Origin: a virus
Lineage: Duplodnaviria > Heunggongvirae > Uroviricota > Caudoviricetes
Strand: one strand, 5' to 3'
Virus record (IMG/VR): IMGVR_UViG_2671180637_000005
DNA length: 18,478 bases
Made by a program: the position numbers and the translations under genes. How positions within the stretch are numbered: the stretch's first letter is position 1; each line of letters opens with the position of its first letter. Under the pieces are notes generated by a model that was given only the letters and a program-made list of their open reading frames with translations, was not told the origin of the DNA and ran no database searches. Of this stretch, positions 181 to 1,260 are shown in pieces.

Positions 181-427
181 TTGGCTGCATAAATAATATT
201 TTAAGTTGCAAGTTGGCTATTCGTAGGAATAGAACCTTAGGCATGCTGAATGCGTTTTCTGAACATTGTTTTATAAACTGTGTCTGCTTGCTGTTGTGAT
301 CCTGCTTTTAGTGATGGTGATGATGGATTTCACCAGCAGGATAATGTTGGTACTGACTGATGGCGCTCTGGTCTGCGGCATTGTGGTATTGCTGTGGCCG
401 ATGATGAAAAAACAGAATGAATAATCC

Positions 428-456
428 TTGACTTTTTTGTTTACTGTTTATTAAAA
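428..456 (+). promoter_or_regulatory. candidate sigma70-like promoter (TTGACT -35 with AT-rich -10-like sequence)
   Basis: TTGACT at 428-433 followed 15-17 nt later by TATTAA/TTAAAA. AT-rich context, so chance occurrence is possible. Confidence 0.25.
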
Positions 457-610
457 AATCAACCGCATGGTGAATCCTCCTTGGAGGGGCTAAATGATCG
501 AGTTTTAAGGGCACGTAGCGAGTTCTGTTTGATCATTGCAGAACTTAGCGGGAGGCGCCATGCGTACATCACTAATGTTATTTCCTTCTATCATTTTCCT
601 TGTGAGTTCT

Positions 611-636
611 GGCTGCGCATGGCGCGGCCTTTTTTT
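611..636 (+). terminator. intrinsic terminator-like hairpin plus T-run
   Basis: GGCTGCGC(611-618) / GCGCGGCC(622-629), 8 bp stem with one G-U pair and a 3-nt loop, then TTTTTTT (630-636). Confidence 0.4.
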
Positions 637-817
637 ATGACCTGCCACTGGCAGATGGTCATCCTGTGATTTGATTCCGGTTCCGGCTTTTTAACTCTGT
701 TCCTGTACACGGGAGAAATTCTATGTCGATTAATCGTTATGATATTGGTTACAAGAAGTACCACGTATTGTGTTGAGATAGAAAGCCTGGTGCCAGAGGT
801 AAATGCAGCAGCATAAT

Positions 818-880
818 AAAAAAGAGCCAGCGCAGAAGAGAACGGGTAAAAGAGTCTGCGCTGGCGTGGGGATATTCCCC
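818..880 (-). terminator. leftward intrinsic terminator-like structure (two adjacent hairpins, U-run on minus strand)
   Basis: 11-bp perfect inverted repeat GCCAGCGCAGA(826-836)/TCTGCGCTGGC(855-865) with 18-nt loop; second hairpin GGGGA-TAT-TCCCC (868-880). A6 run at 818-823 on + strand gives a U-run directly 3' of the stem on the minus-strand RNA. Confidence 0.4.
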
Positions 881-1044
881 GTGGAGAAATGATATGTAAC
901 ACACATCGGGAACCTTTCTATATAAACATTATCATTATTGTCAATCATAACAGTCAGGTATTATGACGTTTATGCATCAGGGCCATCAGGAATTAACTGG
1001 TGGCTTTTTATTGTTGTCAGCTTCCGGATAACGGGAGACGGGGT

Positions 1045-1260
1045 ATGTACCAGATGGAAAAAATAACAACAGGTGTGTCATACACCACGTCAGCGGTGGG
1101 GACGGGATACTGGCTACTGCAGTTGCTGGACAAAGTCTCCCCATCCCAGTGGGTGGCAATAGGCGTATTGGGTAGCCTGGTGTTTGGCTTGCTGACGTAT
1201 CTGACAAACCTTTATTTCAAGATTAAAGAAGATAAGCGTAAGGCTGCGAGAGGTGAATAA
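1045..1260 (+). CDS. pinholin, phage 21 S21-like class II holin with dual-start motif
   Basis: Translation [71 protein letters not shown] closely matches my recollection of S21 (...[15 protein letters not shown]...[20 protein letters not shown]). Two TMDs. Two in-frame ATGs at 1045 and 1054. Stop overlaps endolysin start (TAATG). Confidence 0.85.

Follow-up and report, generated by a model that had tools for sequence, protein, structure and literature searches.

PasD1 is a small RNA (sRNA) of 173 nt encoded on the plus strand of prophage PP4 in EPEC E2348/69 (NC_011601.1 1060260-1060432; Table S6 of Pearl Mizrahi et al. 2021, PMC8550237). It was mapped by RNA-seq coverage, northern blotting and RIL-seq, with an RNA-seq baseMean of ~8,650, a RIL-seq rank of 20 and a band detected on the northern blot (probe CATGCGCAGCCAGAACTCACAAGG), and its EHEC homologue is named as EcOnc13 in the same study (PMC8550237). 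EcOnc13, from prophage Sp3 of E. coli O157:H7 Sakai, is an Hfq-CRAC peak that runs at ~187 nt on a northern blot (Tree et al. 2014, PMC4104026). PasD1 and EcOnc13 are the same locus, but EcOnc13 was defined only as an Hfq cross-link cluster, without further characterisation (PMC4104026). STnc100 (Rfam RF02076) is an sRNA carried by prophages of Salmonella, E. coli and Shigella; in Stx2 phages, for instance, it lies downstream of stx2. Common ancestry and structural homology of PasD and STnc100 are the independent conclusion of a preprint (Zhu, Shabalina and Storz 2026, doi 10.64898/2026.05.13.724894), which also reports PasD in two phages and Esr41-type matches near PasD. The lambda pR'-6S RNA-tR' unit, of which StxS is the Stx-phage counterpart, also produces a short terminated RNA in the late region, and its -35 hexamer is likewise TTGACT.

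The window analysed here, the whole stretch of 18,478 nt in IMG/VR record IMGVR_UViG_2671180637_000005, is late-region DNA from a lambdoid E. coli prophage. For positions 1-1300, 563 complete E. coli genomes gave matches covering at least 80% of the query length, and the best of these, EPEC O127:H6 E2348/69 among them, are 99.8% identical. From the annotation of matching genomes and the open reading frames (ORFs) of the window, the gene order around the unit is the 3' end of a membrane-protein gene (247 aa, 1-180), tciB (DUF3927, 266-424), the sRNA unit itself from promoter to terminator (428-640, plus strand), a 17-codon remnant of a nanS-p/SASA sialate esterase gene (723-776), a class II holin gene (1045-1260) and a SAR endolysin gene (1260-1757), followed by spanin and terminase genes. 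In the annotated E2348/69 PP4 and Sakai Sp3 prophages the sRNA likewise lies 3' of Q and tciB and adjoins the holin/lysozyme cassette, and the preprint gives the same arrangement, with Q/tciB upstream and holin/lysozyme adjacent (doi 10.64898/2026.05.13.724894). The unit sits in the 'moron' insertion site, between cargo genes downstream of pR' (membrane protein, tciB) and the lysis cassette. This matches the layout described by Tree et al. 2014, in which sRNA genes lie between a moron CDS 3' of pR' and a conserved phage ORF (PMC4104026).

The unit at 428-640 is, with high confidence, the PasD1 gene (EcOnc13 in EHEC); its product is a trans-acting prophage sRNA of the PasD/STnc100 group that associates with Hfq. 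The RNA-coding part, 465-636 on the plus strand, is identical at 172/172 positions to NC_011601.1 1060260-1060432, and the sole difference from the published PasD1 is in the U-tail, which has 7 residues here and 8 there. The reverse complement of the published northern probe matches window 598-621 exactly. PasD1 of E2348/69 and the window also agree in probe site, in seed and in the terminator variant, GGCUGCGC-AUG-GCGCGGCC. The gene order is shared as well, running from Q through the membrane-protein gene, tciB and the sRNA to the holin gene, with the esterase gene deleted. Compared with Sakai Sp3, 648/651 positions of window 400-1050 are identical, and the Hfq-CRAC cluster EcOnc13 (Sakai 901332-901382) maps to 571-621; the EcOnc13 northern oligonucleotide given in the supplement of Tree et al. 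(PMC4104026) did not match the locus in the window, and coordinates alone were used for this assignment. The element was already known, and was re-found here from raw sequence with no new biology needed. PasD2, the second copy in E2348/69, departs from this sequence at 5 positions: A>G, C>T, a deletion of 1 nt and two changes in the terminator. Unlike the unit in the window, it has an intact esterase gene and PasA downstream.

A scan of the window with Rfam at gathering thresholds reported nothing. At an E-value threshold, RF02076 STnc100 gave a full-length match to 435-640 when 400-1050 was searched (40.2 bits, E 2.9e-7), a score below the gathering cutoff of 47 bits. The intergenic regions between tciB and the esterase or holin gene in phages JLK-2012, PPyecE_EH1910 and Evi and in a Korean clinical isolate carry STnc100 at 104-145 bits. 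PasD itself was found in phages 434 and 2B8 in our phage search. STnc100 and PasD have in common their genomic slot (3' of tciB or stxB, 5' of the nanS-p esterase gene), a promoter motif, helices P1, P2 and P4, a loop pairing and the invariant blocks GCAUGGUGAAUCC and CGGGAGGC. PasD is unlike STnc100 in a 7-nt deletion that removes P5 and in a P2 with CCUCC in place of CCCCC and a 3-nt loop, and its linker, seed and terminator are unrelated to those of STnc100. PasD is a divergent relative of STnc100.

Two further arrangements of the family were observed. Eight IMG/VR contigs (L012, L015, L024, L025, L033, L046, L078 and L088) each have the RNA gene in tandem, with two STnc100-type cores on one strand at a distance of 230-480 nt. 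In phage PPyecE_EH1910, the anti-sRNA AgvB (L005 2704-2765, minus strand; Rfam 96.5 bits) lies tail-to-tail directly after an STnc100 copy, and the two use one bidirectional terminator, an arrangement of convergent sRNA pairs described by Tree et al. (PMC4104026).

A promoter-like element at 428-456 had been part of the original prediction, and it is present and rightly placed: the combination TTGACT-N18-TAAAAA occurs once in the window and in 0/200 shuffles. The -35 hexamer is TTGACT at 428-433 (plus strand). The region of the predicted -10 element also stands, but the hexamer first proposed (TTAAAA, 451-456) is one base off, and the best one is TAAAAA at 452-457, after an 18-nt spacer and 7 nt before the mapped 5' end. 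A generic sigma-70 scan made no call on this TTGACT/TAAAAA promoter, because the -10 hexamer lacks the final T. To set the element in its family context, 120 IMG/VR loci with the invariant core GCATGGTGAATCCNCCT were collected, which together with earlier loci gave 26 distinct upstream sequences. In all of these variants the block TTT(G/A)TTAAAA is present at constant spacing to the first G of the RNA, which places a TAAAAR hexamer 6-7 nt upstream of the published 5' end. PasD copies have TTGACT or TTGATT as the -35 hexamer, and most STnc100-type copies have TGn before the -10 block (an extended -10), with TTGTCT or TTGCCT ~18 nt upstream. The conserved spacing of the block supports an independent sigma-70 promoter for the sRNA, and an RpoD ChIP-exo signal has been reported at Salmonella STnc100 copies (PMC10794520).

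The published ends of the E2348/69 RNA map to window positions 465 and ~636, where the two stretches are identical, and the unit therefore corresponds to the detected ~173-nt RNA. The 5' end of PasD1 was set from RNA-seq coverage and northern size (PMC8550237). Position 465 is thus a presumed primary start, and a 5' end made by processing from the upstream tciB transcript is possible.

The original prediction took this unit for the equivalent of pR'-tR', a late promoter like that of lambda pR'-6S RNA-tR' which would constitutively make a short terminated RNA unless a cognate Q modified the polymerase. Part of this holds: the unit is discrete, lies in a lambdoid late region and yields a short (~173 nt) terminated RNA, and the layout is alike in having the -35 TTGACT of lambda pR', an RNA of ~170 nt and a strong terminator upstream of the lysis genes. 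However, the unit stands apart from Q. Its TTGACT/TAAAAA promoter lies ~1.2 kb downstream of the end of Q in the matching genomes, with two protein genes (the 247-aa membrane protein and tciB) in between, and the real pR' follows Q there. The Q gene of PP4 (L002 3561-4184, 98% identical to lambda Q) ends ~820 nt before the window begins. Directly 3' of it, the sequence aligns with lambda from the pR' -35 through the Q-binding spacer and the -10 to the early transcribed pause region, with a near base-for-base match of TTGACTTTTTGAATAACTTTGGGGAAACTTGACACCAATAATGGG to lambda TTGACTTATTGAATAAAATTGGGTAAATTTGACTCAACGATGGG, so that E2348/69 PP4 has a lambda-like pR' and Q-binding/pause region directly after Q, ~1.2 kb upstream of the promoter of the sRNA. 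For phage 434, the curated record likewise places a terminator ~50 nt after its Q. Compared by eye, the spacer TTTTTGTTTACTGTTTAT and start GCATGGTGAA of the unit are unlike lambda ATTGAATAAAATTGGG and TTGACTCAACGAT, and beyond the -35 hexamer no likeness to a lambda Q-binding or promoter-proximal pause element was seen. The near-copy of lambda pR', its Q-binding element and its pause region lies at L002 4227-4270 in PP4, ~775 nt upstream of window position 1.

The Q proteins encoded upstream of the family are also of more than one type. They have 207 aa at PasD1, 229 aa at PasD2 and 162 aa at the STnc100 copy of JLK-2012, and BLASTP of the 207-aa Q against the 229-aa and 162-aa proteins gave nothing significant, so the RNA family is found behind three Q types with no detected similarity. 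Q-promoter pairs are type-specific (lambda, 21, 82). A promoter shared by several Q types is therefore unlikely to be a Q-loading promoter, and the reading of 428-640 as the late promoter unit is improbable in the extreme. PP2 and Sakai Sp3 have an unrelated 229-aa Q (Q82-like in the phage 434 record) and the same downstream cassette, pointing to mosaic exchange at the Q/pR' module.

The PasD1 RNA begins with a structured 5' domain (465-564, plus strand) made up of helices P1 (465-472/556-563), P2 (477-481/485-489) and P4 (520-527/539-546). This segment folds at -39.4 kcal/mol (z = -3.9), and 0/200 shuffles were as stable. Pairing in P1, P2, P4 and P5 was counted on an alignment of 24 distinct family members. 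Across these 24 variants 96.4% of cells pair; shifting the 3' partners by 1-3 columns lowers this to 37-50%, and the observed pairing or covariation score was reached by 0/500 shuffles. P1 is uninformative in this count, as its 5' strand was fixed by the search pattern. Covariation in P4 involves three pairs, with 18 cells changed on both sides; its strands are GAGUUCUG/CAGAACUU in the window and GGAUUCAG/CUGAAUUC, among others, in relatives. All three of the STnc100 consensus helices P1, P2 and P4 form in PasD. The STnc100 hairpin P5 (CCGGG-AGGCA-CCCGG) is absent in PasD, where the 7 nt forming its 3' arm are missing and GCGGGAGGCGCC joins the 3' strand of P1 directly.

An additional pairing was found between the segment that follows P2 (493-501, AAUGAUCGA) and the loop of P4 (529-537, UUGAUCAUU), which are complementary. 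It co-varies by sequence type, as AUCAGC/GCUGAU, AUCAGU/ACUGAU, CUGGUG with CACCGG or CACCAG, and AAUGAC/GUCAUU. Since MAFFT aligns the types in different registers, a formal pair count was precluded, and the pairing was judged instead by comparing duplexes within and across types: the cognate loop pairs (25 distinct combinations) have a mean run of 7.0 bp and -9.3 kcal/mol, compared with 4.2 bp and -3.0 for cross-type pairs. One sequence type is without the loop pairing. The strands follow in the order a, b, a', b', and the pairing must therefore form either a pseudoknot or an alternative fold. It is not part of the consensus structure line of Rfam RF02076, and is possibly the one new point of this analysis.

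Linker, seed and terminator are swapped freely between variants of the family, while P1, P2, P4 and the loop pairing are retained. It is conceivable, though we hold the idea only tentatively, that the conserved 100-nt 5' domain is a functional module of its own and not a passive scaffold for the seed, with the loop pairing acting as a pseudoknot or switch. Candidate roles are protection from RNase, a docking site for a protein or the ribosome provided by the invariant GGGAGG and GAAUCC blocks, and an effect in cis on read-through transcripts of the late operon.

Downstream of the 5' domain lies an unstructured, U-rich linker (565 to ~610-612, plus strand), which has no stable fold (-2.6 kcal/mol, z = +0.5) and carries the proposed seed UGUGAG at 601-606. 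The seed and its target motif CUCACA come from Fig. S5 and Table S7 of PMC8550237, where the MEME E-value of the motif is poor. The RNA ends in an intrinsic terminator at 611-636 (plus strand), with a stem-loop at 611-629 followed by T7 at 630-636, as recovered by scan and fold. Its sequence, GGCTGCGC-ATG-GCGCGGCC, forms an 8-bp stem (7 G-C, 1 G-U) with a 3-nt loop ahead of U7, at -15.2 kcal/mol (z = -3.0; 0/200 shuffles as good). A terminator at exactly this place had been proposed from the letters alone, and the published 3' end of PasD1 falls there. The terminator 3' end probably also binds Hfq.

PasD1 RIL-seq chimeras lie at 1060384-1060434, with partners that include aceE, uspA, tir, bfpB, cesF, gltI, coaE and yhdW (PMC8550237); this interval corresponds to window 589-639. 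The existence of the RNA, its size, its Hfq association and its target chimeras have been shown for the identical sequence in E2348/69 and Sakai. An Hfq-associated base-pairing sRNA is the best-supported mechanism, the regulatory effect on targets being presumed. In RNA-seq of an hfq deletion, the abundance of PasD1 and PasD2 was not lowered (log2FC -0.18 and +0.55), and PasA, PasB and PasC fell by 2-7 log2 units (PMC8550237). The main text of that paper speaks of Hfq-dependent stability, despite the unlowered RNA-seq levels of PasD. Levels of PasD independent of Hfq are compatible with a putative self-stabilising 5' domain.

The position of the unit also allows it to be read as a cis-acting leader or attenuator for the downstream esterase and lysis genes, or as a 3'-UTR fragment cut from tciB mRNA. 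In PasD2, phage 434 and STnc100 loci the unit is directly 5' of the nanS-p esterase gene, and 555-564 (GCGCCATGCG) is perfectly complementary to 616-625, a stretch inside the terminator. The resulting 10-bp duplex has -23.3 kcal/mol, compared with -14.8 for P1, making an antiterminator pairing conceivable. As for processing, Pearl Mizrahi et al. bracket PasD2 with its upstream gene in their orientation column (PMC8550237). However, the attenuator pairing is weakened by a mismatch in PasD2 (-16.5) and is impossible in STnc100 relatives, which have unrelated terminators, and the minimum-energy fold retains both P1 and the terminator. In all variants, even those with unrelated upstream genes, a conserved promoter motif keeps a constant distance from the 5' end, which speaks against this reading. 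Additionally, the sRNA gene is fully conserved in the window even though the esterase gene has been deleted. The attenuator model is therefore unlikely, and a cis-acting or processed RNA as a whole has a low probability beside the independently transcribed sRNA PasD1.

Two micro-ORFs had been noticed in the unit, ATG 494-508 (encoding MIEF) and ATG 560-640 (26 aa), and both are present, each after a GGAGG-type sequence. A small-protein gene or dual-function RNA, with the 26-aa ORF, the 4-aa ORF or a 62-aa TTG ORF (481-669) translated, would fit the strong SD-like sequences at suitable spacing, the hydrophobic 26-aa peptide with its SSGC motif and the annotation of the 62-aa ORF in phage 434 (GenBank OL657226). 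Several STnc100 copies of EDL933 also have ribosome footprints, with ribosomal coverage values of 0.04-3.2, but in these data genuinely non-coding sRNAs, RyhB, OmrA and CyaR among them, are covered by ribosomes to an equally high degree (PMC5331693). The frames themselves are not conserved. In PasD2, the 1-nt deletion turns MRTSLMLFPSIIFLVSSGCAWRGLFL into an unrelated 14-aa peptide with its stop inside the seed, and in 30 family variants the peptides that start at the conserved ATG range from 2 to >70 aa and are unrelated in sequence, which speaks against a membrane protein, lipoprotein remnant or leader peptide. Among family variants, MIEF is limited to PasD copies. In the predicted fold, ATG 560 lies within the 3' strand of P1, and GGGAGG at 550-555 is paired with CCUCCU at 476-481.

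Translation of any of these ORFs is thus very unlikely, even more so than the cis-acting reading above. We conclude that the micro-ORFs are by-products of conservation at the RNA level, because their frames are not conserved while ATG and GGGAGG are kept in RNA helices; GGAGG/GGGAGG and ATG 560 are structural and not translation signals. Two longer candidates were examined and rejected. The 26-aa micro-ORF as the start of a longer lipoprotein was searched by tblastn against phages, and matched only the same locus in 434 and 2B8. The 62-aa TTG ORF of phage 434 (481-669) does not keep its frame: copies with ~97-100% identity in the RNA differ in reading frame across the C-terminal third (17-20 codons).

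Further features were observed in the region between the terminator and the holin gene. At 723-776 the nanS-p/SASA sialate O-acetylesterase gene is reduced to its first 17 codons (MSINRYDIGYKKYHVLC, followed by a stop), and the conserved 5' leader at 640-722 is retained. The esterase gene (1851 nt) is intact in phage 434 and E2348/69 PP2, and phage Evi has the same deletion as the window. A convergent partner sRNA gene lies at ~812-921 on the minus strand. Rfam gives it a weak Esr41 match at 816-905 (32.3 bits against a gathering score of 102, E 3.4e-4), which coincides with Sakai EcOnc32 (an Hfq-CRAC cluster with an RNA of ~112 nt on a northern blot, PMC4104026; window 812-900). On the plus strand, ~872-905 matches the published probe for EcOnc32. 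A promoter-like CTGACT-18-GATAAT (957 to 928, minus strand) would give a predicted RNA of ~110 nt ending at the terminator GCCAGCGC...GCGCTGGC plus T6. RefSeq places a 132-aa 'hypothetical protein' at 505-903 on the minus strand (E2348C_RS28255 in E2348/69, ECs_0817 in Sakai), overlapping both sRNA genes. As a gene this ORF was rejected: it is split in the window by the T7 versus T8 difference in the U-tract of PasD, and is probably an annotation artefact.

The mode of action proposed for PasD1 is the following. Its own sigma-70 promoter, TTGACT-18-TAAAAA, would start transcription at about G465, and the first 100 nt would fold into a compact multi-helix domain. The U-rich single-stranded linker would then display the seed UGUGAG, and the G+C-rich hairpin with U7 at 611-636 would both terminate transcription and provide the Hfq-binding 3' end. 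In the lysogen, the seed may pair with mRNAs that bear CUCACA, from core as well as virulence genes. Like lambda tR', the terminator would need read-through by Q-modified polymerase, and, judging from gene order, polymerase of this kind that starts at the real pR' upstream would pass 611-636 during lytic growth and go on into the lysis genes.

For annotation, a late promoter should not be placed at 428-640, and neither the micro-ORFs, nor the 62-aa ORF of phage 434, nor the RefSeq minus-strand ORF at 505-903 should be called genes. For the family, the loop pairing gives experiments a starting point for asking why Stx-type and related prophages retain this RNA so widely.
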